Below are positions 6,861 to 62,900 of a DNA stretch of 64,000 nt, piece by piece. This stretch comes from Eledone cirrhosa (taxonomy: Eukaryota): the NCBI GenBank assembly GCA_964016885.1, contig OZ024741.1, positions 160,332,001 to 160,396,000 of the forward strand, written 5' to 3'. Under the pieces are notes generated by a model. The model had not been told where the DNA came from, made no database searches, and saw only the letters and a program-made list of their open reading frames with translations. Each line of letters starts with the position of its first letter. Positions within the stretch are counted from its first letter, which is position 1. The position numbers were made by a program, and so were the translations under genes.

Positions 6861-6965
<105 letters not shown>

Positions 6966-12754: not shown

Positions 12755-12800
12755 TGTCAAAGTTCTTTCGTCACACATTCTGTGACCTCTTCAGTGACTG
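12755..12800 (-). ncRNA. Minimal type I hammerhead ribozyme
   Basis: gtca-CTGAAGA-g-gtcac.agaatgt.gtgac-GAAA-gaac-TT-tgac. Confidence 0.7.
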
Positions 12801-16029: not shown

Positions 16030-19000
16030 TGAGCGTGATAGAGAGGAAGTGAGAAAAGGATATGAGGGAAGAGTGTGATAGAGAGGAAAATGTATAGGGA
16101 TATAGGGGCAGAGTGTGATAGAGAGGAAGTGGTACAGGGATATAGGGGCAGAGTGTGAGAGAGAGGAAGTGGTACAGGGATATAGGGGAAGAGTGGGAGA
16201 GAGAAGAGGTGGTACAGGGATATAGGGGCAGAGTGTGATAGAGAGGAAATAGTACAGTTATATAGGGGCAGAGTGTGATAGAGAAGAAGTGGTACAGGGA
16301 TATAGGGGCAGAGTGTGATAGAGAGGAAGTGGTACAGGGATATAGGGGAAGAGTGGGAGAGAGAAGAGGTGGTACAGGGATATAGGGGCAGAGTGTGAGA
16401 GAGAGGAAGTGGTACAGGGATATAGGGGCAGAGTGTGAGAGAGAGGAAGTGGTACAGGGATATAGGGGTAGAGTGTGATAGAGAGGAAGTGTTACAGTTA
16501 TATAGGGGCAGAGTGTGATAGAGAGGAAGTGGTACAGGGATATAGGGGCCGAGTGTGTTAGAGAAGAAGTGGTACAGGGATATAGGGGCAGAGTGTGATA
16601 GAGAGGAAGTGGTACAGGGATATAGGGGCCGAGTGTGTTAGAGAAGAAGTGGTACAGGGATATAGGGGCCGAGTGTTATAGAGAGGAAGTGTAGAGTGTG
16701 ATAGAGAGGAAGTGGTACAGGGATATAGGGGCCGAGTGTGAGAGAGATGAAGTGGTACAGGGATATAGGGGCAGAGTGGGAGAGAGAGGAAGTGGTACAG
16801 GGATATAGGGGCAGAGTGGGAGAGAGAGGAAGTGGTACAGGGATATAGGGGCCGAGTGGGAGAGAGAGGAAGTGGTACAGGGATATAGGGGCCGAGTGTG
16901 ATAGAGAGGAAGTGTAGAGTGTGATAGAGAGGAAGTGGTACAGGGATATAGGGGAAGAGTGGGAGAGAGAGGAAGTGGTACAGGGATATAGGGGAAGAGT
17001 GGGAGAGAGAGGAAGTGGTACAGGGATATAGGGGCAGAGTGTGTTAGAGAGGAAGTGGTACAGGGATATAGGGGCAGAGTGTGTTAGAGAAGAAGTGGTA
17101 CAGGGATATAGGGGAAGAGTGGGAGAGAGAGGAAGTGGTACAGGGATATAGGGGAAGAGTGGGAGAGAGAGGAAGTGGTACAGGGATATAGGGGCAGAGT
17201 GTGATAGAGAGGAAGTGGTACAGGGATATAGGGGCAGAGTGTGTTAGAGAGGAAGTGGTACAGGGATATAGGGGCCGAGTGTGATAGAGAGGAAGTGTAG
17301 AGTGTGATAGAGAGGAAGTGGTACAGGGATATAGGGGAAGAGTGGGAGAGAGAGGAAGTGGTACAGGGATATAGGGGAAGAGTGGGAGAGAGAGGAAGTG
17401 GTACAGGGATATAGGGGAAGAGTGGGAGAGAGAGGAAGTGGTACAGGGATATAGGGGCCGAGTGTGATAGAGAGGAAGTGGTACAGGGATATAGGGGCAG
17501 AGTGTGATAGAGAGGAAGTGTAGAGTGTGAGAGAGAGGAAGTGGTACAGTTATATAGGGGCAGAGTGTGATAGAGAGGAAGTGTAGAGTGTGATAGAGAG
17601 GAAGTGGTACAGTTATATAGGGGCAGAGTGTGATAGAGAGGAAGTGGTACAGGGATATAGGGGCAGAGTGTGATAGAGAGGAAGTGTAGAGTGTGATAGA
17701 GAGGAAGTGGTACAGGGATATAGGGGCCGAGTGTGATAGAGAGGAAGTGGTACAGGGATATAGGGGAAGAGTGGGAGAGAGAGGAAGTGGTACTGGGATA
17801 TAGGGGCAGAGTGTGATAGAGAGGAAGTGGTACAGGGATATAGGGGCAGAGTGTGATAGAGAGGAAGTGGTACAGGGATATAGGGGCAGAGTGTGAGAGA
17901 GAGGAAGTGGTACTGGGATATAGGGGCAGAGTGTGATAGAGAGGAAGTGGTACAGGGATATAGGGGCAGAGTGTGAGAGAGGAAGTGGTACAGGGATATA
18001 GGGGCAGAGTGGGAGAGAGAGGAAGTGGTACAGGGATATAGGGGCAGGGTGTGTTATAGAGGAAGTGGTACAGGGATATAGGGGCAGAGTGTGAGAGAGA
18101 GGAAGTGGTACAGGGATATAGGGGCAGAGTGTGAGAGAGAGGAAGTGGTACAGTTATATAGGGGAAGAGTGGGAGAGAGAGGAAGTGGTACAGGGATATA
18201 GGGGCAGGGTGTGTTATAGAGGAAGTGGTACAGGGATATAGGGGCAGAGTGTGAGAGAGAGGAAGTGGTACAGGGATATAGGGGCAGAGTGTGTTAGAGA
18301 GGAAGTGGTACAGTTATATAGGGGAAGAGTGGGAGAGAGAGGAAGTGGTACAGGGATATAGGGGCAGGGTGTGTTATAGAGGAAGTGGTACAGGGATATA
18401 GGGGCAGAGTGTGAGAGAGAGGAAGTGGTACAGGGATATAGGGGCAGAGTGTGAGAGAGAGGAAGTGGTACAGGGATATAGGGGCAGAGTGTGTTAGAGA
18501 GGAAGTGGTACAGTTATATAGGGGAAGAGTGGGAGAGAGAGGAAGTGGTACAGGGATATAGGGGCAGGGTGTGTTATAGAGGAAGTGGTACAGGGATATA
18601 GGGGAAGAGTGGGAGAGAGAGGAAGTGGTACAGGGATATAGGGGAAGAGTGTGAGAGAGAGGAAGTGGTACAGGGATATAGGGGCAGAGTGTGATAGAGA
18701 GGAAGTGTAGAGTGTGATAGAGAGGAAGTGGTACAGTTATATAGGGGAAGAGTGGGAGAGAGAGGAAGTGGTACAGGGATATAGGGGCAGAGTGTGATAG
18801 AGAGGAAGTGGTACAGGGATATAGGGGCAGAGTGTGATAGAGAGGAAGTGGTACAGGGATATAGGGGCAGAGTGTGATAGAGAGGAAGTGTAGAGTGTGA
18901 TAGAGAGGAAGTGGTACAGTTATATAGGGGAAGAGTGGGAGAGAGAGGAAGTGGTACAGTTATATAGGGGAAGAGTGGGAGAGAGAGGAAGTGGTACAGG

Positions 19001-19598
19001 GATATAGGGGCAGAGTGTGATAGAGAGGAAGTGTAGAGTGTGATAGAGAGGAAGTGGTACAGTTATATAGGGGCAGAGTGTGATAGAGAGGAAGTGGTAC
19101 AGTTATATAGGGGCAGAGTGTGATAGAGAGGAAGTGGTACAGGGATATAGGGGCAGAGTGTGATAGAGAGGAAGTGGTACAGGGATATAGGGGCAGAGTG
19201 TGATAGAGAGGAAGTGGTACAGGGATATAGGGGCAGAGTGTGATAGAGAGGAAGTGGTACAGGGATATAGGGGAAGAGTGTGAGAGAGAGGAAGTGGTAC
19301 AGGGATATAGGGGCAGAGTGTGATAGAGAGGAAGTGGTACAGGGATATAGGGGCAGAGTGTGATAGAGAGGAAGTGGTACAGGGATATAGGGGAAGAGTG
19401 TGAGAGAGAGGAAGTGGTACAGGGATATAGGGGCAGAGTGTGAGAGAGAGGAAGTGGTACAGGGATATAGGGGCAGAGTGTGATAGAGAGGAAGTGTAGA
19501 GTGTGATAGAGAGGAAGTGGTACAGGGATATAGGGGCAGAGTGTGATAGAGAGGAAGTGGTACAGGGATATAGGGGCAGAGTGTGATAGAGAAGAAGT
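16030..19598. repeat. 40-bp minisatellite array (~90 units) with interspersed 23-bp short variant
   Basis: Unit gagtgtgatagagaggaagtggtacagggatataggggca; variant gagtgtgatagagaggaagtgta. Confidence 0.98.
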
Positions 19599-19614
19599 GC
19601 GAAAGTCATATAGA

Positions 19615-19770
19615 GGAATTATCGACCCCAATATTGGACTGGTACTGTTTTTTATCGACCTGGAAAGAAGTTGACCCCAGCAGCATTTAAAATCAAGGGG
19701 CGCCGACGGCTGGAACGAATACGGCAAAGCGTTCTATCGAACTTTCTAGAGACTCTACCAATTGGCCGCC
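19615..19770 (-). mobile_element. Degenerate SINE
   Basis: atcgacccca..ctggtactg..tttatcgacc..gttgacc matches the SINE body seen at 10926 and 24015. Confidence 0.55.
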
Positions 19771-21328: not shown

Positions 21329-21998
21329 AAAAATATAGTGTACATAGGTGAGACAGCTCGTAGTGTAGGGGAACGGATAAATGAACACTAGCGAGACCTT
21401 CAAGATAGTAAAGAATCATCTGTACTCTACCAACATGCTAAAATAGAACATAAGGGTAAATTAGAGAACATAGAAATAAAAATAGAATCTACACACAGAA
21501 AAGACGCAATGTTTAGACAAATCACAGAGGCAATAAACATAAAAGAATTACAACCAAATAGAAAATAGAAAACATGAGTGGAACAGCAACATCACAACTT
21601 ACAAATTAAGGACAAAATGAAAACACACACGCACATAGAACAAACAACCAACCAGTAACATGTAAATAAACAAATAAATAAACGAATATAAACACATACA
21701 GACACCCGGATGTGGCGCATGCGCACACTGAGCACACAACACATACACAGAAACAAGATGGCGTAGGACAGAACAAAGGAGAGGCACAAAAACAAAGAAA
21801 AGAATCCCAGTCACTGAAGAGGTCACAGAATGTGTGACGAAAGAAGTTTGACAATATATAAACCACCATCTGGTTGTGGAACCAACCAACCAACCGGAAA
21901 TTTATAAATTCCTAAATTTATAAATTTATTATAATAAATTGAAGTGAAAGCAACTGGTGCGTGTGTTTCTTATTGGCAACATGACCCTCCCAAAGTAT

Positions 21999-22004
<6 letters not shown>
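21329..22004 (+). mobile_element. 5'-truncated PLE 3' end (GIY-YIG C-terminus + UTR + HHR at 21810-21852), inverted relative to 12598-13270
   Basis: NIVYIGETARSVGERINEH; near-identical reverse complement of 12598-13270; (TA)n on both sides. Confidence 0.9.
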
Positions 22005-22065
<61 letters not shown>

Positions 22066-35532: not shown

Positions 35533-36547
<1,015 letters not shown>

Positions 36548-36868
36548 TAGATTGGGTTAGAAACTCAAAATAGTCCTTTACAATTAAATAGCTCAAAGAA
36601 GAGAATCTTTCCGAGCCGTGTAATATAATTGGATATATGAGAGGGATGAACACAGATATAACTATACATGTGTTCCAATTGCAAATGACCAAGTTGGCTA
36701 GGTTGAAAAATACTAATTTAAAACAATATGGCTTTCCTGGCTCGAATTATCATAATAAATCAATAAAAATAACAAACCTATATCGGGCGAATAGCCTATG
36801 ATGCCCGGACAGACATAAATCTGTTTCGCAATAATTATTAAGCGAAAGCTAGAATTCCTATATATATA

Positions 36869-36951
<83 letters not shown>

Positions 36952-37154
36952 TAATAAATTTGAAGACTAAAATCCAAAGAGGGCTCGATAAGGATAAATA
37001 TATATCAAATATATAAGAACCGTAGAGCAAATATTTATTAAAGTAACAGATTAAAGTTTAAGCAAAGAATCTCTGCTTTAACCCTTAACGGGATCTTCAG
37101 AAGATCCCGTTAAGGGTGAAAGCAGCGATTCTTTGCTTAAACTTTAATCTGTTA

Positions 37155-37253
<99 letters not shown>

Positions 37254-37309
37254 CGAAGGGAATTAGCCGTCGAAACGGCTTGAGCTCAGCCGTCGGGGTC
37301 TTACTTGTT

Positions 37310-37344
<35 letters not shown>

Positions 37345-37353
<9 letters not shown>

Positions 37354-40300
37354 ATATTAATAAATGGAAACAATATTTATAAAACCATATTTATTTTATT
37401 ATATATATTTCAAGGGCAACCAAGGCAAATTATGGTGCGCTTTCATCAGATAAAATACAGATTTGTTTTATAAATAAATATTGACATACCCGGAAAAAAA
37501 GACAACCTTAACGGTTGGGGCTTCCTAGATAGTGGAAATATTAAATTTATTGAGGGTGATACAAAATTATGAGTGAGTATGCAAATGAGTGTCCGAAAGG
37601 TTGAAAAGATAACGGTTTATTTAAACTAAACTGTTGGAAGAAGGTGATATGTAAGGGAGAGAGAAAAAAGAAAAAAAGAAAAAAGAAAAAAAGAAAAAAA
37701 GAAAAAAGAAAAGAAAAAAAAGAAAGGAGAAAGATAGAAGAGGAAAGAAAGAATGATTATATATATTGATAGTGAAAATAGAGTGCATGAAGAGATGAAT
37801 TTCAAAGGATAAATATACACAGCGTAAGTATATCTAAGTGAAAGAAGAAATGAGAATAACGTGGAAGACTAATATTTATAATGCAGGATTCATTACGTTT
37901 TGATTATAATATTTATAATGATAGGTTGAAAAATTAGATTAAAATTAAATTAAAATTAAAAAATTAGAAATCAAAATTAAAGATTAAAATTTACCTTAAT
38001 ATTAAAGATTTAATTTAATAATTTAATATTAATAATTAGTTTAAATGTGTATGTTAAGGATTATAAATTATTTAAATAAATATATAGTATTTTACATTAG
38101 AGCAAATCTAGTATAGTTTATTTTATTAAAAGTTGTAAGTCAAAAATTTAAACATCCAAATAATTCTAAATTTATGAAAAATTTTTCGAGAGTTTACAAA
38201 GGAATAACTACTTAGTTATATTATAAAAACAATAAGGAAGTGTAAAGGAAGTTAGAAGTGATTTTTTAAGAACTCAGATGATTCTAAGGATTAAATGTTA
38301 TAAAGTTAAAAAGTTAAACAATTTTTATATTAAGAATATAATTAAAACATGAACGATATATTATTTTATACGAAGTCATAAATTTACTTGCTATAAAGTT
38401 AAAACATTTAAAAAATTTATCTTAAGAATATATTTAAAGCATAAACATTAGGTTATTCCACATATATATAAAAAATCTATATATAAAAATCATATGTTTT
38501 TCCACATATATATAACCATTTGGATATATATATTAAAACCTTTTGAAGATATAAAAATATAAAAATATAACAATATATTGGAAGGTATGAAAATAATGGT
38601 TTTTCTATATCTTTCAAAGGAATTTTCAAAAGATTTTCTTAAAACCTTCCGTAAGTTTTACAAGAAAAAATTTTCCTTAAAGGAGTTTCAAGCAGTCATT
38701 TAAGGAAATCTTAGGTCTAATAATATAAAGTATATAGTATATATATGTGAAGTAGAGATAATAGAAAGTAAATTAAATATATGAATCATATATAGATATA
38801 GAAGACATTATGTAAAAGAGATAAATCATATATTACAAAAGAGCAACCAATGATGACCTTGAAAAACTAAATACTGAAGCTTCTTATATAATGCAGGAAT
38901 TAGGCATTGAAAATAGGACTCAACCCTTCACACCTAGGAAACCAAAAATTAATCTGAAGGACCATAAAAGAAATTTTGAAATTGAATTACCAGTTAGATT
39001 GATTGCACCATCTAAATCGCACCTTGGCATACTCAGCAAGAATATTTTAGATAGAATCATACCACAACTTAAGGAAATATCTTATTTAAAATTATAGAAT
39101 GGGACTAATGAAGTTATTGACTGGTTTAAGGACATTAAATATAAACATAACAATAAATTCATTCAATTGGTTATTGCTAATTATTACTCCTCTAGCACTC
39201 CTAATCTACTTAATAAAGCCCTTACATATGCATTTAAATATACAGATTTAACTAGCAATGAAATGCACATTATCTTAACTACACGTAAAACATTAATTAA
39301 ATTTAGCAACCACCTTTGGACTAGAGCAGACAGAGATAACAGTTTCGATATCACTATGGGATCATCGGACTCGGGGCAATTAATGGATCTTGTGGGGCTT
39401 TTTATTAACAATACTTTACATAGGAAAATACCGGAGATGACCGGTGGTTTATATCGTGACGATATGTTATTACTTATTGAAAATAATAATAATTGTGAAA
39501 TAAATAGGAAAAGAAAAGAAATTATACAACTTTTTAATAGCGTTAATCTTAAAGTAGAAGTAGAGAATAATTATAAAAAAGTTAATTTTTTAGATGTAAC
39601 TTTAAACCTTAACACTGGTCTTTATTATCCATTTCATAAAATAAACGAGAATTTAAACTATGTTAACTTTAATTCCAATCACCCCAGATCCGTTAAAAAC
39701 ACTATTGTAAATTCTGTGCAGCAACATATTTCTAGAATTTCAGCGAATTAAAATATCTATGAATATAAGACACAATATTATAACGAAGCGTTAGGTAGAG
39801 CAGGCTATAGTAATAAAATTAAATACATTAATAAGGATGTTCCAATTAACCATAACTATAATTATAATAGAAAACCTTACACTAACTCGAAAACCAAAAG
39901 AAAAAATAGAACTAGAAATATATTATGGTTCGCTCCCCCTTTCTCATTAAGTATTAAAACTCCTATTGCTAAATTATTCTTTAAAGCTCTAGATAGGTGC
40001 TTTCCTAGGACACACAGGTATTACTCAATCTTTAATAGACATACTATTAAACTCTCATATTCCACCACTATGAATTTAGCGCAGAATATTAATAGAATTA
40101 ATAATAGAAACTTAAAACCTAACCAGAATAGCATTAATACCCCTAGCAATATCCAATATAATGTTACGGCTCCCAAAAATATAAATTTAGATAAATGTAA
40201 TTGTAGAAATAAATCTAACTGTCCTCTAAATAATAATTGTTTAGTTTAAAATATAGTATACAATTGTAATGTCAAAACTCCTTTAACTATGTCGGCTCTA

Positions 40301-42049
40301 CTTCCACAGACTTCAAATCTCGTTTTAATAACTATAAATGTTCCTTTACGAATATTAGTTAAAAAAATCTTCAACTTCTCTATCTAACTTATTATGGGAC
40401 TTGAAATCCAAGAATATTAACTATTCTTTACTTTGGAAAATTATTTCAAAAGCTCCTTCATACACTGCTTTATCCCAAATTGCTCTCTTTGGGCTGAAGA
40501 AATATTCTTCATACTAAAAAGTAAGAACTCTATTAATTTGCGAAATAATTTATTCAGTTCCTGCAAACATCGTTTAAACTCAACTTTTAAATATATATAT
40601 AAAATGGAATATATGATTTATCTCTTTTACATAATGTCATCTATATCTATATTTGATTCATATATTTAATTTACTTTCTATTATCTCTACTTCACATATA
40701 TATACTATATACTTCATATTATTACGCCTATCGATAGATTATAAAATTTCCTTATATGACTGCTTGAAACTCCTTAAGGAAAGTTTTTTCTTGTAAAACT
40801 TACGGAAGGTTTAAGAAAATCTTTTAAGAATTCTTTTGAAAGATATAGAAAAACCATTATTTTATACCTTCAAATACTTTTATATTGTTATATTTTTATA
40901 TTTTTATATCTTCAAACGTTTTAAATATATATAGGTTTTTTATATATATGTGGAATAACCTAATGTTTATGCTTTAAATATATTCTTAAGATAAATTTTT
41001 TAAATGTTTTAACTTTATAGCAAGTAAATTTATGACTTCGTATAAAATAACATATGGTTCATGTTTTAATTATATTCTTAAGATAAAAAATGTTTAACTT
41101 TTTAACTTTATAACATTTAATCCTTAGAGTCATCTGAGATCTTAAAAAGTCACTTCTAACTTCCTTTACACTTCCTTACTGTTTTTATAATATAACTAAG
41201 TAGTTATTCCTTTGTAAACTCTCGAAAAAATTTTCATAAATTTAGAATTATTTGGATGTTTAAATTTTTGACTTACAACTTTTAATAAAATAAACTATAC
41301 TAGATTTGCTCTAATGTAAATTAAATCTTTAATATTAAGGTAAATTTTAATCTTTAATTTTGATTTCTAATTTTTTAATTTTTCAACCTATCATTATAAA
41401 TATTATAATCAAAACGTAATGAATCCTGCATTATAAATATTATTCTTCCACGTTATTCTCATTTCTTCTCTCACTTAGATATACTTACGCTGTGTATATT
41501 TATCCTTTGAAATTCATCTCTTCATGCACTCTATTTTCACTATCAATATATATATAATCATTCTTTCTTTACTCTTCTATCTTTATCCCTTTGTTTTTTC
41601 TTTTTTCTTTTTTTTTCTTTTTTTCTTTTTTTTCTTTTTTTTCTTTTTTTTTTCTTTTTTTTCTTTTTTTTCTTTTTTCTTTTTTTTCTTTTTTCTTTTT
41701 TCTTTTTTTTCTTTTTTCTTTTTTCTTTTTTCTCTCTCCCTTACATATCACCGTCTTCCAACAGTTTGATTTAAATAAACCGTTATCTTTTCAACCTTTC
41801 GGACACTCATTTGCATGTTCACTCATAATTTTGTATCACCCTCAATAAATGTAATATCTCCACTATCCAGGAAGCCCCAACCGTTAAGGTTGTCTTTTTT
41901 TCCGGGTATGTCAATATTTATTTATAAAACAAATCTGTATTTTATCTGATGAAAGCGCACCATAATTTGCCTTGGTTGCCCTTGAAATATGTATAATAAA
42001 ATAAATATGGTTTTATAAATATAGAAATATAGTTTCCATTTATTAATAT

Positions 42050-42056
<7 letters not shown>
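37345..42056 (+). mobile_element. Naiad-like Penelope element, 5'-truncated, with inverted 3'UTR copy on its left
   Basis: RT motifs NLKDHK, FDITMGSSD, GLYRDD, VNFLDVT; CNCR..CPL..CL GIY-YIG region; HHRs at 37393-37456 (minus) and 41939-42002 (plus). Confidence 0.9.
38830..40610 (+). pseudogene. PLE RT-GIY-YIG pseudogene
   Basis: ORFs 38891-39097 and 39167-39751 in frame, interrupted by TAG/TAA; homologous to 53496-55446. Confidence 0.85.
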
Positions 42057-42093
<37 letters not shown>

Positions 42094-42296
42094 TAACAGA
42101 TTAAAATTTAAGCAAAGAATCGCTGCTCTCACCCTTAACGGGATCTTCTGAAGATCCCGTTAAGGGTGAAAGCAGCGATTCTTTGCTTAAACTTTAATCT
42201 GTTATTTTAATAAATATTTGCTCTACGGTTCTTACATATTTGATATATATTTATCCTTATCGAGCCCTCTTTGGATTTTAGTCTTCAAATTTATTA

Positions 42297-42373
<77 letters not shown>

Positions 42374-42681
42374 AATTCTAGCTTTCACTTAATAATTATT
42401 GCGAACAGATTTATGTCTGTCCGGGCATCATAGGCTATTTTCCCGATATAGGTTTCTTATTTTTATTGATTTATTATGATAAATCGAACCAGGAATGCCA
42501 TATTGTTTTAAATTAGTATTTTTCAACCTAGCTAACTTGGTCATTTGCAATTGGAACACATGTATAGTTATATCTGAGTTCATCCCTCTCATATATCCAA
42601 TTATATTACACGGCTCGGAAAGATTCCCTTCTTTGAGCTATTTAATTGTAAAGGACTATTTTGAGTTTCTAACCCAATCTA

Positions 42682-42756
<75 letters not shown>

Positions 42757-42761
<5 letters not shown>

Positions 42762-44197
42762 AAAAAAACGGACGTAATGTTGAGCATAAAAGGTCAATGT
42801 GAAAGAAAAAATAATGTTATTTACAGGCAAAGTTCTTGAAGTTAAGCAGATCAAAATGTGTTAATATAGCAAGAGTGCTTAGTTGATCCATGATTCCATG
42901 ATGGAGGCAAATGGTGGACTAAGGTTTGATATGATTTCCCTTTTTAGAGAGTTAATATGCAGAGGGAAGCAATTCTTGCTGGATGATATTTAATTTATTT
43001 AAGAAAAAGGTTTAGGTAGGGTGTGAGGGAGGTAACTCTTGTAAATGTTTCATTGTTTGTTAGTTTGGTCCGAGATTTAGTGCATTAAATCGAGGCTGGA
43101 ATTTGTTAATGAAATGTGTTTTCTTATTGGTACGATCGATGAAAGTAGTGTTGTCTATGAATTTGTAAATGGGGAAAATTTTAAAGTTTGGATGTTGGTT
43201 GTGTGCACAATTGGCGATATGTTCACTAAATGCAATCTTTCTGTATTTCTGTATTTTAATTTGTGATTTATGGACGGTCATACGTTGACGGAGGTTGTTT
43301 TTTTATCTGCCCTATGTAGTGCTCTTGACAACCTGAGCAGGTCAAAACATAGAGTAGGTGTTCAGATGCACATGTAAAGTTGTGTTTAACTGTGAAACGT
43401 TGTCCTTGTTTAAAATGGAATGTTGAACCTTCTATTAGATTTATGCATATGCCACAGTTGGGCCTTCCGCATTTTGTTACTGTAGGGTTCATTGTGAGTG
43501 TTTGTTGGATTTTGGCTTGTGTGAGGATGTTTTTTATGAAGTTGTCATTTGCTCTCTATGACGTTGTGTGTTTGGAGGATTTTGTTCATTCTTGGGTCTC
43601 TTTTTAGTAATGGAATGTTCTGGAGGATGGTGTCGAATGCCTCATTGTTGAGGGGGCTGTGTGTTGAGATGTATGGTAGAGTTTTTTGTTGCGGTTCATT
43701 CCTGGGTTTGGGGTGTCTGAGTTCCTGGATGTCTAGTTTTAGGGCACGTTGGAATCCATTGTTGATTAGGGATGGTGGGTAGTTTCTGCTGATAAGTGTG
43801 TTTTTTTAATTCTTCTAGTCGTGTGTAGCATGTGTATTTATCTGAAACTATTGTGCAGATCCTTCTGGCTAGGTTATAGGGAATTGCCATTTTGGTGTGT
43901 CTAGGGTGGCACGAGTTGAATGGTAGGTATTGTTTGGAGTCTGTGGGTTTGTAGTATATGTCTGTTTCTATTTTGTTGCTTGTTTTCTTGATGAGGATGT
44001 CGAGGAAAGGGAGTTGTTCGTGGCTGTAATCCATTGTGAATCGTAAGTTTGTGTTGAGTCCATTTAGAAGGGTTTTTAACTTAAACAGTTTATCTATACT
44101 TTCATGCCAGAGGTTGAAGCAGTCGTCCAGATATCTCTTCTAGTTATTGTCTATGTGTTGGTAGAAGTGGTTGCCGTATTTGTCTAGAACTTTACGG

Positions 44198-46677: not shown

Positions 46678-47094
46678 AAATTAAATTGAGGGCGTCATGT
46701 CAGAGAGACATGCGCCATATCCACTGTAGAATATGCTCCAAGATTCCAATGAAGAGATCCGAGCATTTTATATCAACTAGAAGTTGATTGACATATATAT
46801 ATATATCTAAAATAAACATATGAAACAATCACAGGGAATAATTTGTAAAAGTGCGTAAGCACACATAGTTAGGTAGGTAACTAATTAAAGTTTAACTAAA
46901 ACCTTAAATATAGATATCTTATAAATTGATTAATCTTCCTTGTATATATTTCATCAAATAAATATATTTCAGCATCAATCGATCGGTAAACCACAGTAGC
47001 CAAATCCCAGATTTTCAACAAGGGAGAAAATGTAACTATCTGTGTTTACACAGTAAATCCAAATCTACATATACATATATACATCAGCATATAT

Positions 47095-47163
<69 letters not shown>

Positions 47164-47348
47164 GATAAATCTACCAAGAGTTTACGGTAGTGTCCAATCC
47201 GTATGAAGAACTCAATGTATTCCGGATATCATGGAAAGAAGAGATGTAATGAAAAATCACTTTCGGTGAAAGATAAACGGTATACAGAGTCAAGATAAAA
47301 TATTAAACAAATAATGAATAAACAATTCCTTATATTAAACAAAAAAAG

Positions 47349-47502
47349 TTCATTATTTAACGATCGTTTCTAGGATATATATGTGTTATAATTGGTATGC
47401 ATATTCAACAGATCTATGTACAAAATTATACAAAATTATACAAATTATCAAGATTAAATATACATACCAACACATATATACGCCGTCTTCAGAAATAATG
47501 AA
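47349..47502 (-). ncRNA. Type I hammerhead with extended stem II (left arm)
   Basis: Reverse complement of 59561-59714. Confidence 0.75.
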
Positions 47503-48137
47503 GTATATTTATTGATAATAACAACAATTCAAAATTTCAGGTCCGTTTGGGAACAAAATTGACCAATGAAAACACAAAGGGTTAAATGCAGTTCGGTGTG
47601 TGTATATACATGTAAAACCCTTACACATATTTTACAAAAATGTATGTATAATTTGTATACGCATACTAAAAGGATGGATGCAAATACAAAATTTCAAGGT
47701 TAATGTCTCTGTAAGTTTATAATGCACCGATAAGATGCGTATTGACACAAGTATGAAATTAAGTATATAAATATATTTTTTCATACTCACACTTATCCGT
47801 ACAATCACACATACACGCCCGTATATGCATAAATATACACATAACCACGAACATACAAACACACACACACCCCCACTCACATTTATATATGTGGATATAA
47901 AATCATAAGCACATGGATATTAATTCACTCCCATAAAACATTGGCACACACATTTTTAGATCAAGATACAGAAATTAGGTGGGAGGGGGGGGGGAGAGGT
48001 CAGTATTCAACGGTCTGAGCAGACTGCCTAATATAGATGTATCTATAAACTAAGAAAATAAAAAATAAATAAACATTAAAGAGGAAAGAATAGAAAGAAA
48101 AAAGAAAAAAGAAAAAAGAAAAAAGAAATATATCAAG

Positions 48138-48175
<38 letters not shown>

Positions 48176-48394
48176 TATACACATACATATATATATATAT
48201 ATATACACACACACATATATATAAATATACATATATATACACATAGACACACACACACACATACATAAATATACACACATATACAAACACATACATACAT
48301 ATACACACATCCACACTAAGAACATACATACACACACATATATAAACATATACACATACACACATACATATATATACACATATACATACAAATA

Positions 48395-48444
<50 letters not shown>

Positions 48445-49076
48445 CATATATATGTATATACACGTACATATACACACACATATACATATAATCACACATA
48501 CTATATAGACACACATATATATAACCACACACATACATGCACATATACAACACTTACATACTAATATACATACAGATATACACATACATAGCTATATATA
48601 CACACAAATATATACAGACTTACATATATACATACAGACAAATACTTACGCATCTATATATCGGTATATACATACAAACACCACTACACTATCACACAAC
48701 TTAGAAATACAAAGAGAAAGGTATATACCTATATACACATACATATACAAATAGAAAAACATATAGATATATATATATATATATATATACACACAGATAT
48801 ATATATACATATATATATATAACATATATATATATATATACACATACATATACACATACACACACATACACATACACACACATACATACATGTACACACA
48901 CATAGAAATATATACGCATACACACATACACACATACATATAAAGTCATACACACACAAACACCTACACGAATATACACATACACATATATAAAGATATA
49001 TATACACACACACACACACACAACACATACACACATACACATATATATAAAAAAAATAAATAATAAAGATATATAC

Positions 49077-49131
<55 letters not shown>

Positions 49132-49480
49132 TACATATATATATACATACACATACATACACACATACATAGACATACATGTACATACATACACGTACAT
49201 CGATATACATACACATATATATACACACATAGACATATACATACATACACACACAACTTACATACACACATATATATACATGTATATTCATACATAGAAT
49301 TAGATATATAATCATACATACATATGCACTTACTTATACTCATATATACAAATACATACGCATCCATATATGCGTATATACATAAAAACGCCACTACAAC
49401 CTCACCTAACTCAGACATACAAATAAAATTAAAAAGGCATATGTATATACATATATACACGCATTAATAGAGACATATAT

Positions 49481-49530
<50 letters not shown>

Positions 49531-49620
49531 ATTCATATATATATATATATAGATACCCACACACACATACCACCATAAATACACATACAAACACCCACAT
49601 ATAGATATATATACACACGC

Positions 49621-49651
<31 letters not shown>

Positions 49652-49779
49652 TAAAAAACAGACATGCACATATATATATATTTTTTTACACTTATATATA
49701 CACATATTATATACACATACACAACCTCACATATACACACATACACATAAGTTATATTATAATAATAAAAAAATAAAAA

Positions 49780-49818
<39 letters not shown>

Positions 49819-49905
49819 CATATATATATATATATATACATATAGACATATACATACATATATACACACATACGAATATAGACATATAATCACACATAGA
49901 CACCC

Positions 49906-49940
<35 letters not shown>

Positions 49941-51588
49941 TACATATACACAGACACATATACACACTCACATATATATGTGTGTGCACACACACATATA
50001 TACACACATACACATATATACACATAAACACATATATGTGCATACATGCACACACACACACATATATCACATAGATACGAAGATAGACATATAAATAGAG
50101 AGACATACATATATATACAACACACATACACACACATACATACACACACATATACACATACATATATATATATATATATATATTTCTATATATACACATA
50201 TACATATATATATACATATATACATATATATATATACATACACATATACATACACACATTCACATACACATACATATATACATGCATATATACACATATA
50301 TACATACATACACACACTCATATATACACACACAATCTTACATTCATATTTGCATGCGCATATATGTATTTTTATATTCAGATATAAATACCCAAACCTA
50401 TATAGACACCTACCTACATATATATTCATACATACACGCTTACAAATACAGATGATAATAGTATGGGGGAAAGGGGGGGTTTGGAGAAGGGGATCATAGT
50501 AAATATATGTTTCAAGAAACATAGAATATTTTCCGTATCTTGATCCAATGTATGTTTTTACATAGTTTCAGTGTTAGGAAATACAATAAACAAGAACTAA
50601 GGCAAAATCTATGCATCTCAAAATAAACAAGTATACCATTAATTATATGTTAACTAAACCAAAGATAGTTAACATATTGATTTCTAAGGTGTAAATTAGT
50701 TAGGTTTATAATATTTGAAGCAGAATTTTGAAGTTAAATAGTAGTAGAGTATTAACTATAGTATAACTAAATTAAAGTTAATAACGTTATGGTATCAATA
50801 TTAGGAAATGAATTTAGTAAAAGGGAAAAAACAAATAAAATAAAGTATTACATCGGTAGTAGAATATAAATTATAGGTTAACTAAATTAAAAATTATATA
50901 TTTATTTCTATAGTATATGTTAATTAGGTATATAATACATAAAACAGATATTGTATTTTATCAATAGCATAATATAATTATATGCAAATAGACATCAAAA
51001 TTAATACACATACATATACATATACATACACATACATATATACATATATATACACATATATATATATATACATATATACACATATACATACACACACACA
51101 TACACATACACATATACATATACATATCTTTTTCAAAAAATTGCATAGAATATATTAACTAGGTATATATCCAAAACACATCCCATTCTATGATTACATG
51201 ACTTTCTGCAATTCGTCTGTATAAGGATACTAATTTTAAGCAAATTAAAATTAAATTTTTAGGTTGATTAAAATTAAAACCAAATTATAAATATATTTCT
51301 AAAATGTATATTAATTAGGTCTATAATACTAAAAATTATTTCTCTGTCATTGGATACACGATATTATTTTGTTATATTTTATCTGTAAAAGAATTATAAT
51401 AAAAGGTTTAAATAAATTAAAATTAATCTATAAATTAAATTACTAAGTATATATTAGTAATATTTAAAGGTTTTTCACAATTTATGATTACATAATATTT
51501 TATATTCTCATCTGTAATAAAATTTTAATTAAATTAAATTTATAGGTTAAATAACATTTAAATTAAATTAATTTCTAAAATAATGTTA

Positions 51589-53545
51589 TTAATTAGGTTT
51601 ATAATATTTAAATGTTTTTTTTAGTTTATGATTACACGATATAATTAATTCCTGTCGTTTATTTAATAAGATATCCTTAGACTTCATTATTTCAAATAGT
51701 TCTTGGGAACATAATCTACATTCATTTCTATTATTTTGATAAGGGGTGGCTCTTTTGAGCACACTCCAGGTCAAATCATATTCTATATTCTTATTTTTAT
51801 AACTATTGATTTTTTCTGCTAGAGATGTTGTATTAGCCAGTGCGGCATTTTTAAAAACTATGCTTGTGGGTATTAAACCTTGTCTTAAAATTGTTAGAGG
51901 TAGCTCCTATATATGAGCAAATAGAATCTTTAGTTTTAACATTACATTTATAGACTATGTTGTTAACAAGACAATTTCCTTTTAATGGGCAGTTTGCTTT
52001 GTTTCTACAGTTACATCCTTTCGTTAATTCTGTATTTGAGGAGATATTATGGTTAATTTGATGTACTGGTGGTATACTTATGGTTTTCTTACATTTATAT
52101 GCATTATAGGCACTTATATTTTGTTTTATGTTATTTGTTGTAGAGTATGAGAATTTAACTGTAGACCTATTTAAGATTTGATGGTATTTGTGGTTTGGCG
52201 GGAAGTTTTTCTCAAGGATATAAAAAAATTTTTTAGCAATATTATCCTTAACTTGTAAATTAAAAGGAGCATTATACCAAGTAACCCGTCTATTACGGTT
52301 TCTATGTTGTTTATTATTTTTATTATTTTTATAGGTTGTATCGTGATTTTTACTAGGAGGATTAATGTTAATGATCTCACCACAACTATTTTTAGTTATA
52401 TTTGTAGATTTAGGTGTTTTATCCTTTTTATTAGGAGTTTTATTATTAATATTTATTAGAGTTGTATGATGAGTAGTTTTTTGAGAGTTACTATACTTTA
52501 TATTAGAAGATTTGGTATTTTGGGGTATAGTGTGGGTGGCATTTAGGTGTGTACTTTTCATTTGGTGTTTGTTGGTAATATTATGTTGTATGCTTTCAGT
52601 ATTTTTAGTAGAAGGTATATACTCTAATCTATTTTTGTGGCCACTTCTATCTAGAGCTTCGTTATAGAAGGTCGCATTTTTATCAAATACATCTTGGTTA
52701 GAAGAAAGGTTAGAAATTCTAAGTGATATATTATATGCAAGGTTTTTAAGGATAGATTTAGGGTGATTAGATTGTGAGTGTATGTAATGTAAGTTTTGGT
52801 TAGGTTTATGGTAAGGTTGGTAGATACCCGTAGCTAAATCTAAAGTTATATCTAGGAAATTTACTACTTTACTTGTTTTTTCAAAAGTAATATTAAGATT
52901 ATAATAGTCTTTAAGGAAAGTTCTAATATGTTTTTTGTTTTTTTCAATTTCTGAAAGGCTAAGGTTGTTAGAAAGAAGAAGACAGTCATCACGATATAAA
53001 CCACCTTTGAGGTGGGGAAAAGAGGCATTTATGTTGAAAAGGAGAAAGAGGCCCACAAGATCAGTAATTTGGGCGGAATCGCTTGAACCCATAGTAATAT
53101 CAAAAAGATTACTATATGTGTTTCTGGTCCAGTATTCATTCTGAAATTCAATAAGTGTTAGTCTAGCATGTGTAATAATATTAATGTCATCCAAAGTTAA
53201 GTTAGATCTATTTTTAGCAAATATCAATGCTTTGTTCAGGAGTATAGGTGATATAGAAGAATAGTAATTATCTATATCAAATTGTAGGAATGAAGCAGAA
53301 GATTTACACCTAATATTTTTAAACCAGTTAATTACCTGGGAGGTGTTTTCCCAGAGTGGTAAAATAACGTGTTTTCTTATTTGTGGGATGACTCTATCTA
53401 AAAATTTTTTGCTAATTATTCCAATATCTGATTTGGAGGGACATATAAGTCTAATAGAAGGATTTGAGTTAAAGTTAGATTTGTGATCCTTCAGGTTGAA
53501 GTGTGGTCTTTTCAATGCCAAGGAGTGTGGTCTTTTCAATGCCAA
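51589..53545 (-). pseudogene. PLE RT-GIY-YIG, left arm (5'-truncated; +1 frameshift at ~51853)
   Basis: ORFs 51851-53545 and 51589-51774. Confidence 0.9.
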
Positions 53546-55446
53546 GGATCACAAATCTAACTTTAACTCAAATCCTTCTATTAGACTTATATGTCCCTCC
53601 AAATCAGATATTGGAATAATTAGCAAACAAATTTTAGATAGAGTCATCCCACAAATAAGAAAACACGTTATTTTACCACTCTGGGAAAACACCTCCCAGG
53701 TAATTAACTGGTTTAAAAATATTAGGTGTAAATCTTCTGCTTCATTCCTACAATTTGATATAGATAATTACTATTCTTCTATATCACCTATACTCCTGAA
53801 CAAAGCATTGATATTTGCTAAAAATAGATCTAACTTAACTTTGGATGACATTAATATTATTACACATGCTAGACTAACACTTATTGAATTTCAGAATGAA
53901 TACTGGACCAGAAACACATATAGTAATCTTTTTGATATTACTATGGGTTCAAGCGATTCCGCCCAAATTACTGATCTTGTGGGCCTCTTTCTCCTTTTCA
54001 ACATAAATGCCTCTTTTCCCCACCTCAAAGGTGGTTTATATCGTGATGACTGTCTTCTTCTTTCTAACAACCTTAGCCTTTCAGAAATTGAAAAAAACAA
54101 AAAACATATTAGAACTTTCCTTAAAGACTATTATAATCTTAATATTACTTTTGAAAAAACAAGTAAAGTAGTAAATTTCCTAGATATAACTTTAGATTTA
54201 GCTACGGGTATCTACCAACCTTACCATAAACCTAACCAAAACTTACATTACATACACTCACAATCTAATCACCCTAAATCTATCCTTAAAAACCTTGCAT
54301 ATAATATATCACTTAGAATTTCTAACCTTTCTTCTAACCAAGATGTATTTGATAAAAATGCGACCTTCTATAACGAAGCTCTAGATAGAAGTGGCCACAA
54401 AAATAGATTAGAGTATATACCTTCTACTAAAAATACTGAAAGCATACAACATAATATTACCAACAAACACCAAATGAAAAGTACACACCTAAATGCCACC
54501 CACACTATACCCCAAAATACCAAATCTTCTAATATAAAGTATAGTAACTCTCAAAAAACTACTCATCATACAACTCTAATAAATATTAATAATAAAACTC
54601 CTAATAAAAAGGATAAAACACCTAAATCTACAAATATAACTAAAAATAGTTGTGGTGAGATCATTAACATTAATCCTCCTAGTAAAAATCACGATACAAC
54701 CTATAAAAATAATAAAAATAATAAACAACATAGAAACCGTAATAGACGGGTTACTTGGTATAATGCTCCTTTTAATTTACAAGTTAAGGATAATATTGCT
54801 AAAAAATTTTTTTATATCCTTGAGAAAAACTTCCCGCCAAACCACAAATACCATCAAATCTTAAATAGGTCTACAGTTAAATTCTCATACTCTACAACAA
54901 ATAACATAAAACAAAATATAAGTGCCTATAATGCATATAAATGTAAGAAAACCATAAGTATACCACCAGTACATCAAATTAACCATAATATCTCCTCAAA
55001 TACAGAATTAACGAAAGGATGTAACTGTAGAAACAAAGCAAACTGCCCATTAAAAGGAAATTGTCTTGTTAACAACATAGTCTATAAATGTAATGTTAAA
55101 ACTAAAGATTCTATTTGCTCATATATAGGAGCTACCTCTAACAATTTTAAGACAAGGTTTAATACCCACAAGCATAGTTTTTAAAAATGCCGCACTGGCT
55201 AATACAACATCTCTAGCAGAAAAAATCAATAGTTATAAAAATAAGAATATAGAATATGATTTGACCTGGAGTGTGCTCAAAAGAGCCACCCCTTATCAAA
55301 ATAATAGAAATGAATGTAGATTATGTTCCCAAGAACTATTTGAAATAATGAAGTCTAAGGATATCTTATTAAATAAACGACAGGAATTAATTATATCGTG
55401 TAATCATAAACTAAAAAAAACATTTAAATATTATAAACCTAATTAA
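53544..55446 (+). pseudogene. PLE RT-GIY-YIG, right arm (5'-truncated; +1 frameshift at ~55182)
   Basis: LQFDIDNYYSSI, GLYRDD, VNFLDIT, CNCR..CPL.GNCL..IVY...YIGAT...FKTRF..H, then W.VL...C.LC..E...LLNKRQE...CNH. Confidence 0.92.
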
Positions 55447-57094
55447 TAACATTATTTTAGAAATTAATTTAATTTAAATGTTATTTAACCTATAAATTTA
55501 ATTTAATTAAAATTTTATTACAGATGAGAATATAAAATATTATGTAATCATAAATTGTGAAAAACCTTTAAATATTACTAATATATACTTAGTAATTTAA
55601 TTTATAGATTAATTTTAATTTATTTAAACCTTTTATTATAATTCTTTTACAGATAAAATATAACAAAATAATATCGTGTATCCAATGACAGAGAAATAAT
55701 TTTTAGTATTATAGACCTAATTAATATACATTTTAGAAATATATTTATAATTTGGTTTTAATTTTAATCAACCTAAAAATTTAATTTTAATTTGCTTAAA
55801 ATTAGTATCCTTATACAGACGAATTGCAGAAAGTCATGTAATCATAGAATGGGATGTGTTTTGGATATATACCTAGTTAATATATTCTATGCAATTTTTT
55901 GAAAAAGATATGTATATGTATATGTGTATGTGTATGTGTGTGTGTATGTATATGTGTATATATGTATATATATATATATGTGTATATATATGTATATATG
56001 TATGTGTATGTATATGTATATGTATGTGTATTAATTTTGATGTCTATTTGCATATAATTATATTATGCTATTGATAAAATACAATATCTGTTTTATGTAT
56101 TATATACCTAATTAACATATACTATAGAAATAAATATATAATTTTTAATTTAGTTAACCTATAATTTATATTCTACTACCGATGTAATACTTTATTTTAT
56201 TTGTTTTTTCCCTTTTACTAAATTCATTTCCTAATATTGATACCATAACGTTATTAACTTTAATTTAGTTATACTATAGTTAATACTCTACTACTATTTA
56301 ACTTCAAAATTCTGCTTCAAATATTATAAACCTAACTAATTTACACCTTAGAAATCAATATGTTAACTATCTTTGGTTTAGTTAACATATAATTAATGGT
56401 ATACTTGTTTATTTTGAGATGCATAGATTTTGCCTTAGTTCTTGTTTATTGTATTTCCTAACACTGAAACTATGTAAAAACATACATTGGATCAAGATAC
56501 GGAAAATATTCTATGTTTCTTGAAACATATATTTACTATGATCCCCTTCTCCAAACCCCCCCTTTCCCCCATACTATTATCATCTGTATTTGTAAGCGTG
56601 TATGTATGAATATATATGTAGGTAGGTGTCTATATAGGTTTGGGTATTTATATCTGAATATAAAAATACATATATGCGCATGCAAATATGAATGTAAGAT
56701 TGTGTGTGTATATATGAGTGTGTGTATGTATGTATATATGTGTATATATGCATGTATATATGTATGTGTATGTGAATGTGTGTATGTATATGTGTATGTA
56801 TATATATATATGTATATATGTATATATATATGTATATGTGTATATATAGAAATATATATATATATATATATATGTATGTGTATATGTGTGTGTATGTATG
56901 TGTGTGTATGTGTGTTGTATATATATGTATGTCTCTCTATTTATATGTCTATCTTCGTATCTATGTGATATATGTGTGTGTGTGTGCATGTATGCACATA
57001 TATGTGTTTATGTGTATATATGTGTATGTGTGTATATATGTGTGTGTGCACACACATATATATGTGAGTGTGTATATGTGTCTGTGTATATGTA

Positions 57095-57129
<35 letters not shown>

Positions 57130-57212
57130 GGGTGTCTATGTGTGATTATATGTCTATATTCGTATGTGTGTATATATGTATGTATATGTCTATATGTATA
57201 TATATATATATG

Positions 57213-57249
<37 letters not shown>

Positions 57250-57494
57250 TTTTTATTTTTTTATTATTATAATATAACTTATGTGTATGTGTGTATATGT
57301 GAGGTTGTGTATGTGTATATAATATGTGTATATATAAGTGTAAAAATATATATATATATGTGCATGTCTGTTTTTTATGTGTGTGTATATATATATATAT
57401 ATATGCGTGTGTATATATATCTATATGTGGGTGTTTGTATGTGTATTTATGGTGGTATGTGTGTGTGGGTATCTATATATATGTATATATGAAT

Positions 57495-57554
<60 letters not shown>

Positions 57555-57903
57555 ATATATGTCTCTATTAATGCGTGTATATATGTATATACATATGCCT
57601 TTTTAATTTTATTTGTATGTCTGAGTTAGGTGAGGTTGTAGTGGCGTTTTTATGTATATACGCATATATGGATGCGTATGTATTTGTATATATGAGTATA
57701 AGTAAGTGCATATGTATGTATGATTATATATCTAATTCTATGTATGAATATACATGTATATATATGTGTGTATGTAAGTTGTGTGTGTATGTATATGTCT
57801 ATGTGTGTATATATATGTGTATGTATATCGATGTACGTGTATGTATGTACATGTATGTCTATGTATGTGTGTATGTATGTGTATGTATATATATATGTAT
57901 GTC

Positions 57904-57946
<43 letters not shown>

Positions 57947-58231
57947 GTATATATCTTTATTATTTATTTTTTTTATATATATGTGTATGTGTGTATGTGT
58001 TGTGTGTGTGTGTGTGTGTATATATATCTTTATATATGTGTATGTGTATATTCGTGTAGGTGTTTGTGTGTGTATGACTTTATATGTATGTGTGTATGTG
58101 TGTATGCGTATATATTTCTATGTGTGTGTACATGTATGTATGTGTGTGTATGTGTATGTGTGTGTATGTGTATATGTATGTGTATATATATATATATATA
58201 TATGTTATATATATATATGTATATATATATC

Positions 58232-58275
<44 letters not shown>

Positions 58276-58588
58276 TTTCTATTTGTATATGTATGTGTAT
58301 ATAGGTATATACCTTTCTCTTTGTATTTCTAAGTTGTGTGATAGTGTAGTGGTGTTTGTATGTATATACCGATATATAGATGCGTAAGTATTTGTCTGTA
58401 TGTATATATGTAAGTCTGTATATATTTGTGTGTATATATAGCTATGTATGTGTATATCTGTATGTATATTAGTATGTAAGTGTTGTATATGTGCATGTAT
58501 GTGTGTGGTTATATATATGTGTGTCTATATAGTATGTGTGATTATATGTATATGTGTGTGTATATGTACGTGTATATACATATATATG

Positions 58589-58630
<42 letters not shown>

Positions 58631-58857
58631 TATGTGTGTATTTGTATGTATATGTGTATATGTATGTATGTGTGTATGTGTATATGTTTATATATGTGTG
58701 TGTATGTATGTTCTTAGTGTGGATGTGTGTATATGTATGTATGTGTTTGTATATGTGTGTATATTTATGTATGTGTGTGTGTGTGTCTATGTGTATATAT
58801 ATGTATATTTATATATATGTGTGTGTGTATATATATATATATATATGTATGTGTATA

Positions 58858-58888
<31 letters not shown>

Positions 58889-59560
58889 TTTCTTGATATA
58901 TTTCTTTTTTCTTTTTTCTTTTTTCTTTTTTCTTTTTTCTTTTTTCTTTTTTCTTTTTTCTTTTTTCTTTCTATTCTTTCCTCTTTAATGTTTATTTATT
59001 TTTTATTTTCTTAGTTTATAGATACATCTATATTAGGCAGTCTGCTCAGACCGTTGAATACTGACCTCTCCCCCCCCCTCCCACCTAATTTCTGTATCTT
59101 GATCTAAAAATGTGTGTGCCAATGTTTTATGGGAGTGAATTAATATCCATGTGCTTATGATTTTATATCCACATATATAAATGTGAGTGGGGGTGTGTGT
59201 GTGTTTGTATGTTCGTGGTTATGTGTATATTTATGCATATACGGGCGTGTATGTGTGATTGTACGGATAAGTGTGAGTATGAAAAAATATATTTATATAC
59301 TTAATTTCATACTTGTGTCAATACGCATCTTATCGGTGCATTATAAACTTACAGAGACATTAACCTTGAAATTTTGTATTTGCATCCATCCTTTTAGTAT
59401 GCGTATACAAATTATACATACATTTTTGTAAAATATGTGTAAGGGTTTTACATGTATATACACACACCGAACTGCATTTAACCCTTTGTGTTTTCATTGG
59501 TCAATTTTGTTCCCAAACGGACCTGAAATTTTGAATTGTTGTTATTATCAATAAATATAC

Positions 59561-59714
59561 TTCATTATTTCTGAAGACGGCGTATATATGTGTTGGTATG
59601 TATATTTAATCTTGATAATTTGTATAATTTTGTATAATTTTGTACATAGATCTGTTGAATATGCATACCAATTATAACACATATATATCCTAGAAACGAT
59701 CGTTAAATAATGAA
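59561..59714 (+). ncRNA. Type I hammerhead with extended stem II (right arm)
   Basis: ttcattattt-CTGAAGA-[115-nt hairpin]-GAAA-cgatcg-TT-aaataatgaa; perfect 10-bp stem I. Confidence 0.8.
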
Positions 59715-59759
59715 CTCTTTTTGTTTAATATAAGGAATTGTTTATTCATTATTTGTTTA

Positions 59760-59820
<61 letters not shown>

Positions 59821-59828
59821 GCATATAT

Positions 59829-59861
<33 letters not shown>

Positions 59862-61430: not shown

Positions 61431-61712
61431 AGTCAGTTCTTAGATATGCCAGCTCTGTGTTTATGGTGTTGATTGTATCAGAGCCTTGGGACATATATAT
61501 AATTACAAGAAAAGAAGCTGGCTGTATTTTTGATATAGAAATGGCTTCTACAGGACTAGAACTATTTCCTTCGAAAGAAATTATCAGGGCTATTCTTGTA
61601 GAAGCCGTTTCTATATTTAAAATGTATACTCTGCAGTGTATTCAAAACCTTACTTACTGTGGTTATCCCCGATTGAACCCGGGATAAACTTATATATATA
61701 TATATATATATA

Positions 61713-62900
61713 TCAGCAGAAACTACACACCATCCCTAATCACCAATGGATTCCAACGTGCCCTAAAACTAGACATGCAGGAACTCAGACACCCCAAACA
61801 CAGGAGTGAACCGCAACAAAAAACTCTACCATACATCTCCACACACAACCCCCTCAACAATGAGGCATTCGATACCATCCTCCAGAACATTCCTTTACTA
61901 AAAAGAGACCCAAGAATGAACAATATCCTCCAAACACACAACATCATAAAGAGCAAAAGACAACCCAAATCCATAAAAAACATCCTCACACAAGCCAAAA
62001 TCCATCAAACCCTCACAATAAACCCTAGAGTAACAAAATGCGGAAGGCCCAACTGTGGCATATGCATAAATCTAATAGAAGGTTCAACATTCCATTTTAA
62101 ACAAGGACAACGTTTCACAGTTAAACACAACTTTACATGTGCATCTGAAAACCTTATCTATGTTTTGACTTGCTCAGGTTGTCTAGAGCACTACATAGGA
62201 CAGACAAAATAAACAGCCTCCGTCAACGTATGACCGTCCATAAATCACAAATTAAAATACAGGAATACAGAAAGATTGCATTTAGTGAACATATCGCCAA
62301 CTGTGCTCTCAACCAACTTCCAAACTTTACAATTTTCCCCATTTATAAATTCATAGACAACGCTACTTTCATCCAACGCACCAATAAGGAAACACATTTC
62401 ATTAATAAATTTCAACCAGTACTCAACGCCCTAAAATTCGAACCTTTCTAAAACTGCAACAAACCATGAAACATTTACAAGAGTTACCTCCCTCACACCC
62501 TAACTAATCCTTTTTCTTAAATAAATTAAATATCACCCAACATGAATTGCTCCCCCCTGCATATTAACTCTCTAAAAAGGGAAATCATATCAAACCTCAG
62601 TCCACCATTTGCCTCCTTCACCGAACCATGGTTCAACTAAGCACTCTTACGATATTAACACATTTTGAACTGCTTAACTTCAATGACTGTGCTTGTAAAT
62701 AACATTAACTTTTCTTCCACATTGACTTTTTACGTTCCACAATATGCACCTTTTTTTTTCCTTTTTCTTTTTTCTTTTCACTTCTTAAACCTTGTTTGTA
62801 TATAACATTATTCTTTCTGCACCTTCTGTTTAACATGTGCGACACCACACTAATACATTTCACTATCATTTGATAATGCATATAAATGCAGAAACCGGTA
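61713..62900 (+). mobile_element. Neptune-type PLE 3' fragment (GIY-YIG + UTR), same family as 42757-44198
   Basis: ORFs 61775-62212 and 62170-62451; CGRPNCGIC, IYVLTC..C..HYIGQT; right boundary approximate. Confidence 0.85.

Follow-up and report, generated by a model that had tools for sequence, protein, structure and literature searches.

A head-to-head Penelope palindrome in Eledone cirrhosa and the one-tail rule of its Hydra-clade family

How can one retroelement insertion come to consist of two long copies of the same sequence joined head to head? The question is raised by a 12.6-kb insertion of a Penelope-like element (PLE) at positions 47075-59837 of a 64,000-nucleotide stretch of the Eledone cirrhosa genome (contig OZ024741.1, positions 160,332,001 to 160,396,000), here called the window. 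Comparison of the window with itself by BLAST gave one inverted match (47295-59768, 12,556 columns, 98.3%), in agreement with a first-pass annotation made from the sequence, which described two head-to-head arms of ~6.2 kb. The annotation also proposed that both arms arose in a single insertion event, with reverse transcription primed from each target strand and the two complementary DNAs (cDNAs) then joined, and this is supported by the end structure common to all 52 resolved two-armed insertions of the family. As an insertion the palindrome looks real but is dead; it belongs to a new Hydra-clade family, and its architecture is one already known. It is probably the product of one recent insertion, at a (TA)n tract, in which a single RNA was primed twice, at two fixed sites (twin priming).

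The left arm (47295-53521, minus strand) is a 5'-truncated PLE spanning unit positions ~800-7081, and the right arm (53544-59768, plus strand) is the same element from unit position 830 to 7081. Each arm is ~6.2 kb long, and their 5' ends are ~30 nt apart on the unit. The left arm alone continues outwards into positions 47160-47294 (minus strand), a segment 100% identical to bases 1-137 of a naturally occurring full-length copy. This segment is therefore the PLE tail: it represents the start (~135 bp) of the tandem unit that follows, within the 5' untranslated region (UTR). The tailed end adjoins a (TA)29 tract (47102-47159), and the untailed end a (TA)25 tract (59766-59815). A global alignment of the arms contains 12 substitution and 12 gap events, nearly all of which, the two terminal overhangs aside, are located in microsatellites or homopolymers. 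Three substitutions lie outside such tracts: one is in a T-run of the pseudo-long terminal repeat (pLTR), and the others change the family's SKKIL to SKKFL in the left arm and to SKQIL in the right, so that each arm has its own change. These replacements, the differing microsatellite lengths and the left-only ~135 bp had all been reported in the first-pass annotation. The centre, which had been called nearly spacerless, contains 52 unpaired bases (53492-53543). The central region (53492-53547) includes a 24-bp direct tandem (53500-53523/53524-53547) and a 2-nt microhomology; the microhomology junction between the arms thus carries a templated insertion, which is short.

The family is young, and a 27-mer from its hammerhead ribozyme has 6,716 exact matches in the genome. 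All 61 clusters formed by the first 100 of these matches among those listed (C1, 0.4-70.2 Mb) were sampled, with the orientations of the matches read from the sequence, and comprise 64 insertions. Head-to-head arrangement was found in 44 of them: 41 have both ends resolved and three were set aside, one for an assembly gap, one for an interrupted end, and one, at C1:30.69 Mb, for its inverted flanks. Together with 11 loci from a search based on the reverse transcriptase (RT), including the window, they give 52 resolved two-armed insertions; two more with an unresolved end were dropped. The tail is present at exactly one end in 52/52 of these insertions, two of the untailed ends being slightly short of the usual base. 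Independent choice of site by each arm would give a single tail in at most 50% of insertions, and thus p <= 0.5^52. There are two fixed 3' start points, one per arm, ~135 nt apart: the end of the tail and the end of the pLTR. Priming from the RNA 3' end, as initially proposed, does not describe this arrangement, and the extra 135 bp are the known tail. One locus (L103) resembled a tail/tail pair at first sight; there, a single-armed copy lies next to an older pair with one tail. In a second family, the end pattern chosen for checking the rule occurred only in this window. The one-tail rule is family-wide and new. We found no paper in which it is stated as the outcome of twin priming at two sites; a model of this kind may be given in Evgen'ev and Arkhipova 2005 and Arkhipova 2006.

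The geometry of the arms and their sequence variants narrow down how the two cDNAs were made. The untailed arm reaches further 5' in 27/52 insertions and is without the tail in 20 of those, where neither arm contains the other. This reciprocal unique sequence excludes the fold-back of one cDNA at those 20 loci. In eight of these, the tailed arm does not extend beyond the tail and shares no sequence with the other arm, which is the classical twin-priming geometry. Of the 52 junctions, 32 have microhomology of 1-9 nt, three are blunt, and 17 contain short inserts. Both arms come from one source sequence: in an alignment of 48 copies, 10/12 inverted pairs have a private substitution common to both arms and absent from the ~45 others, and at most 1/12 pairs has a segregating non-microsatellite site at which the arms disagree. 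Private variants are also shared in 2/2 direct tandems. At their 5' ends, 34/104 arms (16 tailed and 18 untailed) stop at the 5' end of the pLTR or a few bases from it, where a TCATT sequence is similar to an initiator.

In LINE-1 twin priming, both target strands prime cDNA synthesis and the inverted junction carries microhomology; the internal site at which the second primer anneals varies, and the two segments hardly overlap. The PLE family is alike in the priming from both strands and in the junction microhomology, whereas its second site is fixed and its arms overlap by up to kilobases. We envisage that the GIY-YIG endonuclease would nick both strands of the TA tract, and that the two resulting 3'-OH groups would prime on one RNA, one from the end of the tail and the other from that of the pLTR. 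The trailing reverse transcriptase would displace the leading cDNA, so that both cDNAs could copy kilobases of the same template, and the cDNA 3' ends would then be end-joined and the gaps filled. In the window, both cDNAs would have happened to stop ~6.2 kb in, 30 nt apart.

Several observations weigh against this reading. In the sample, 20/64 insertions are single-armed or have no partner within range, and the share of two-armed insertions is inflated, because each had two chances of being sampled. The pairs were delimited by hand after their termini had been seen. The arm lengths show no significant coupling (4/21 pairs are within 600 bp of each other, against 2.5 expected; p = 0.23), and thus give no sign of two polymerases tracking each other; the 30-nt match between the 5' ends in the window is therefore treated as chance. 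The shared private variants could also be explained by two RNAs of one locus or by later arm-to-arm conversion. To produce the duplication at the window, the two cuts would have to be staggered by at least 21 nt, with ~17-21 TA units added on each side, whereas duplications elsewhere measure 13-14 bp. Considered in isolation, the window is also compatible with a fold-back, because its left arm is both tailed and 5'-longer. Two palindromes fall outside the one-tail rule. At C1:30690876-30708056 (L105+L040+L041), a ~17-kb palindrome has both family ends untailed; 3.5 kb of a second Hydra family is inverted on both of its sides, followed by a partial pLTR and tail. In an older related pair in the window (36546-42683), both arms terminate flush, within sequence that occurs at this locus only. 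There may be a second route, for example 3' transduction or fold-back. The matched blocks of the 36546-42683 pair are 93-99% identical and surround a related Hydra-type open reading frame (ORF; 38834-40594, 46% identity), and the locus-unique ends of its arms look like captured flank copied into both.

Self-priming, in which a single cDNA (or an antisense template) folds back and serves as its own template, was proposed for Adineta Penelopes (PMC3846280). It would account for a left arm that includes the whole right arm in the window, for the perfect centre of a palindrome at C1:421.19 Mb, and for the inverted flanks at C1:30.69 Mb. However, it predicts nested arms, and 20/52 insertions have reciprocal unique sequence and eight have arms that do not overlap; there is also no stable hairpin at the centre of the window palindrome (z = -0.09), and the constant stop of the second arm at the other fixed site is left unexplained. 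Self-priming is thus excluded as the general route by the non-nested arms, and, although it fits this locus taken alone, we consider it improbable. A less distant alternative is that both strands prime on two RNAs of the same locus held in an asymmetric dimer, or that arms of different loci later became alike through gene conversion, which is established between palindrome arms. This alternative explains the 52/52 rule equally well and makes strand displacement unnecessary, and a predicted dimer and extension of both strands have been reported (PMC11167929). Mixed-source pairs would then be expected, because the genome contains many near-intact copies (at least eight long open frames), yet at most one site in 12 pairs hints at such a mixed pair, and the direct tandem units share private variants too (2/2). 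We therefore judge this alternative rather unlikely and retain twin priming on one RNA as the preferred explanation.

A 27-nt direct repeat occurs at 47075-47101 and 59809-59835 (plus strand); on the right, two more bases, one extra CA, extend it to 59837 and are followed by (TA)12 and unrelated flank. The 22-mer core of the repeat has four occurrences in the 3.0-Gb genome, two of them at this palindrome. The repeat is probably a target-site duplication made by the insertion, longer than usual. The duplication that the first-pass annotation recognised is thus present and likely to be one, but it is atypical, as the usual length in the family is 13-14 bp, judged by eye where the target is imperfect (L093, L055, L071, L090); the ~13-bp duplication at the non-TA target of L093, also read by eye, is clean. 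A repeat that already existed in the microsatellite, with no duplication of the target, seems unlikely, but would be compatible with twin priming, since it concerns the duplication only. It would fit the usual 13-14 bp, the finding of a long non-satellite direct repeat in only 1/53 flank pairs, that of the window, and the same-side motif duplications beside other insertions (L065, L080). Against it, 0/498 background TA tracts have a non-satellite motif of at least 15 nt repeated across the tract; the six matches obtained are all minisatellite-like. An assembly or library artefact, such as a fold-back chimera, is very improbable. The near-identical arms and the uninformative public reads would allow it, but the flanks are direct, with an inverted flank match in 0/53 pairs, the ends fall exactly at the two termini of the family, each arm has its own substitutions, and the same end grammar recurs at 52 loci. 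The first-pass annotation had likewise argued against a fold-back read artefact. None of the public short-read contigs (11 runs listed, the three best holders being one sample) lies over 53524-53551, a gap that is uninformative on the reality of the palindrome, and the few restriction site-associated DNA sequencing (RAD-seq) reads at its centre are consistent with native family sequence.

The window palindrome is not unusual in size for its family, contrary to what was first supposed. Both arms are at least 4.5 kb long at 9/52 loci, and similar or larger palindromes were found. The one at C1:421190745-421208464 (L133+L134) is 17.7 kb long and has a perfect centre with no spacer; each of its arms comprises a full unit and part of a unit upstream of it, and in both arms the partial unit breaks off at almost the same base. 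A rough extrapolation from two or three loci with such long arms in 2.3% of the genome suggests of the order of a hundred palindromes with both arms >4.5 kb genome-wide. The family also includes abundant ~550-bp mini-palindromes (L055-L071), which consist of pLTR and tail and are non-autonomous and retrozyme-like; the 5' end of the pLTR is where both of their arms stop. We reject the idea that mini-palindromes are mainly copied as entire units, as most of their junctions differ and the few that recur do so across subfamilies.

Twin priming may be the default of the family, although we advance this tentatively: one ribonucleoprotein would prime both strands of the target from two fixed sites on one RNA, and each two-armed insertion would consequently have a tail at one end and none at the other. 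Priming at the 5' pLTR/tail junction would give a strong-stop cDNA at the RNA 5' end. This cDNA would have two possible fates: sealing into a ~550-bp mini-palindrome, or transfer to the 3' pLTR in the manner of a retrovirus, giving long arms and partial tandems. The transfer to the 3' pLTR is the most speculative step. If the scheme is true, it would bring tails, pLTRs and inverted copies under one mechanism, and palindromes with both arms >4.5 kb would number of the order of a hundred.

Inverted 5' copies and one-sided tails of Penelope elements have been described (PMC3846280, PMC8557442). In comparison with the inverted pLTRs and one-sided tails of those accounts, the tail at one end is strict here (52/52), and the arm geometry speaks against the self-priming explanation given in PMC3846280. 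The closest biochemical parallel is the Poseidon PAc element of Anolis, which in vitro cleaves and extends both strands, has two internal RNA start sites that bound the tail, and is predicted to form a dimer (PMC11167929). The E. cirrhosa family resembles it in the extension of both strands, the two start sites bounding the tail, and the AT-rich target, whereas the account of PAc, as far as it deals with these sites, connects them neither with the opposite strands of a single event nor with inverted insertions. Complex tandem and inverted PLE structures are named as unexplained where PMC8557442 discusses them, and the steps after priming are left unvalidated in PMC11167929. Taken singly, the window palindrome represents the upper tail of an architecture already known; of value is the rule that holds across the family, by which PLE integration becomes testable. 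Thousands of young copies constrain integration to one tail per insertion, arms that are not nested, one source template, and a fixed stop at the pLTR 5' end, and these constraints separate twin priming from self-priming. If real, the many multi-kilobase palindromes would be a possible source of hairpin RNA and fragile sites.

By its motifs, the element is a Hydra-clade PLE. Natural full-length copies elsewhere in the genome have an ORF of ~810 residues with RVRWR, SDKTG, GLYRDD, an N/K/T-rich linker, CNCRNKANC, a C-terminal GIY-YIG domain, CRLC and CNH. In the 813-residue ORF, SDKTG is at position 115, YRDD at 346, CNCRNKANC at 673, IVYKC...YIG at 693-709 with YIG at 707, CRLC at 771, and CNH at 799. 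Hydra elements are characterised by a C-terminal GIY-YIG, RW[KR], DKT, a CxCX5C linker, a canonical hammerhead and (TA)n targets, with CxxC and CxH around the catalytic E and N (Craig et al. 2021, PMC8557442), and the E. cirrhosa element is alike in each of these. RVRWR is a conservative variant of the N-terminal RWK motif, SDKTG contains the DKG->DKT change, and the CxCX5C linker precedes the endonuclease. There is no CxxC within the GIY-YIG core, where two cysteines are nine residues apart; CRLC and CNH are present as in Hydra. RT precedes GIY-YIG in 66/66 homologues in which both motifs were found. The C-terminal endonuclease was assigned by motif alone, and a Pfam search of the ORF gave nothing significant. 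The "Naiad-like" label of the first-pass annotation had to be replaced, as a Naiad PLE is ruled out by the GIY-YIG located C-terminal to RT, the DKT instead of DKA, and the canonical hammerhead. In the ORF at L006:960-3398, an insert of ~130 residues, rich in N, K and T, separates RT and endonuclease; it is lacking in most homologues and recalls the inserts, rich in Asn, that Adineta Penelopes carry.

The pLTR folds as a type I hammerhead (z = -5.7; 0/200 shuffles fold as well). In the right arm the ribozyme spans 59561-59714 (plus strand) and is built of stem I, CUGAAGA, a long stem II, GAAAC and a short stem III; its mirror copy in the left arm is at 47349-47502 (minus strand). Rfam gave no hammerhead match, only microsatellite-driven microRNA matches below threshold, and the tail region folds no better than its shuffles (z = -0.89). 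The unit is 7,081 bp long, whereas Hydra elements are generally <3 kb, a descriptive and not a defining property, and have tails of 30-40 bp (PMC8557442), against ~135 bp here. The length of the unit is due to its ~4-kb microsatellite-rich 3' UTR, which in the right arm is a ~4.1-kb AT-rich segment (55444-59560, plus strand) mirrored at 47503-51591. A median of 12 TA units adjoins each end of the family's insertions. The stems of the hammerhead are unlike those of Hydra-1_oBim, and the arms are up to 8.8 kb long. PMC8557442 lists Hydra-1_Obim from an octopus and, in its supplement, Repbase Penelope-13_HM with a 966-nt inverted copy at its 5' end. The ORF remnants of the window palindrome (51592-53521, minus strand, with RT, N/K/T-rich linker and GIY-YIG; 53544-55443, plus strand) both lack the first ~170 codons and have the same +1 frameshift in the endonuclease; the palindrome is therefore dead. 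The frameshift is present at one other locus among the 30 from the RT-based search.

The surroundings of the palindrome are rich in other repeats. The left flank (46690-47066) belongs to an older TA-associated family with ~2,400 candidates at ~92% identity, which also formed short inverted pairs. An inverted pair of another element (42775-43794 / 61711-62744, 91%) brackets the whole palindrome and may represent two independent copies; its open frames appear by eye to be RT-thumb-like and GIY-YIG-like. Further away, positions 13367-15181 contain broken RT-like frames of another Penelope-like clade with a DKS motif, flanked by an inverted pair (12598-13259 / 21348-22006). LINE-like ORF1 fragments with a zinc knuckle occur at 1273-2817 (minus strand), and a 3.6-kb minisatellite array at 16024-19618.

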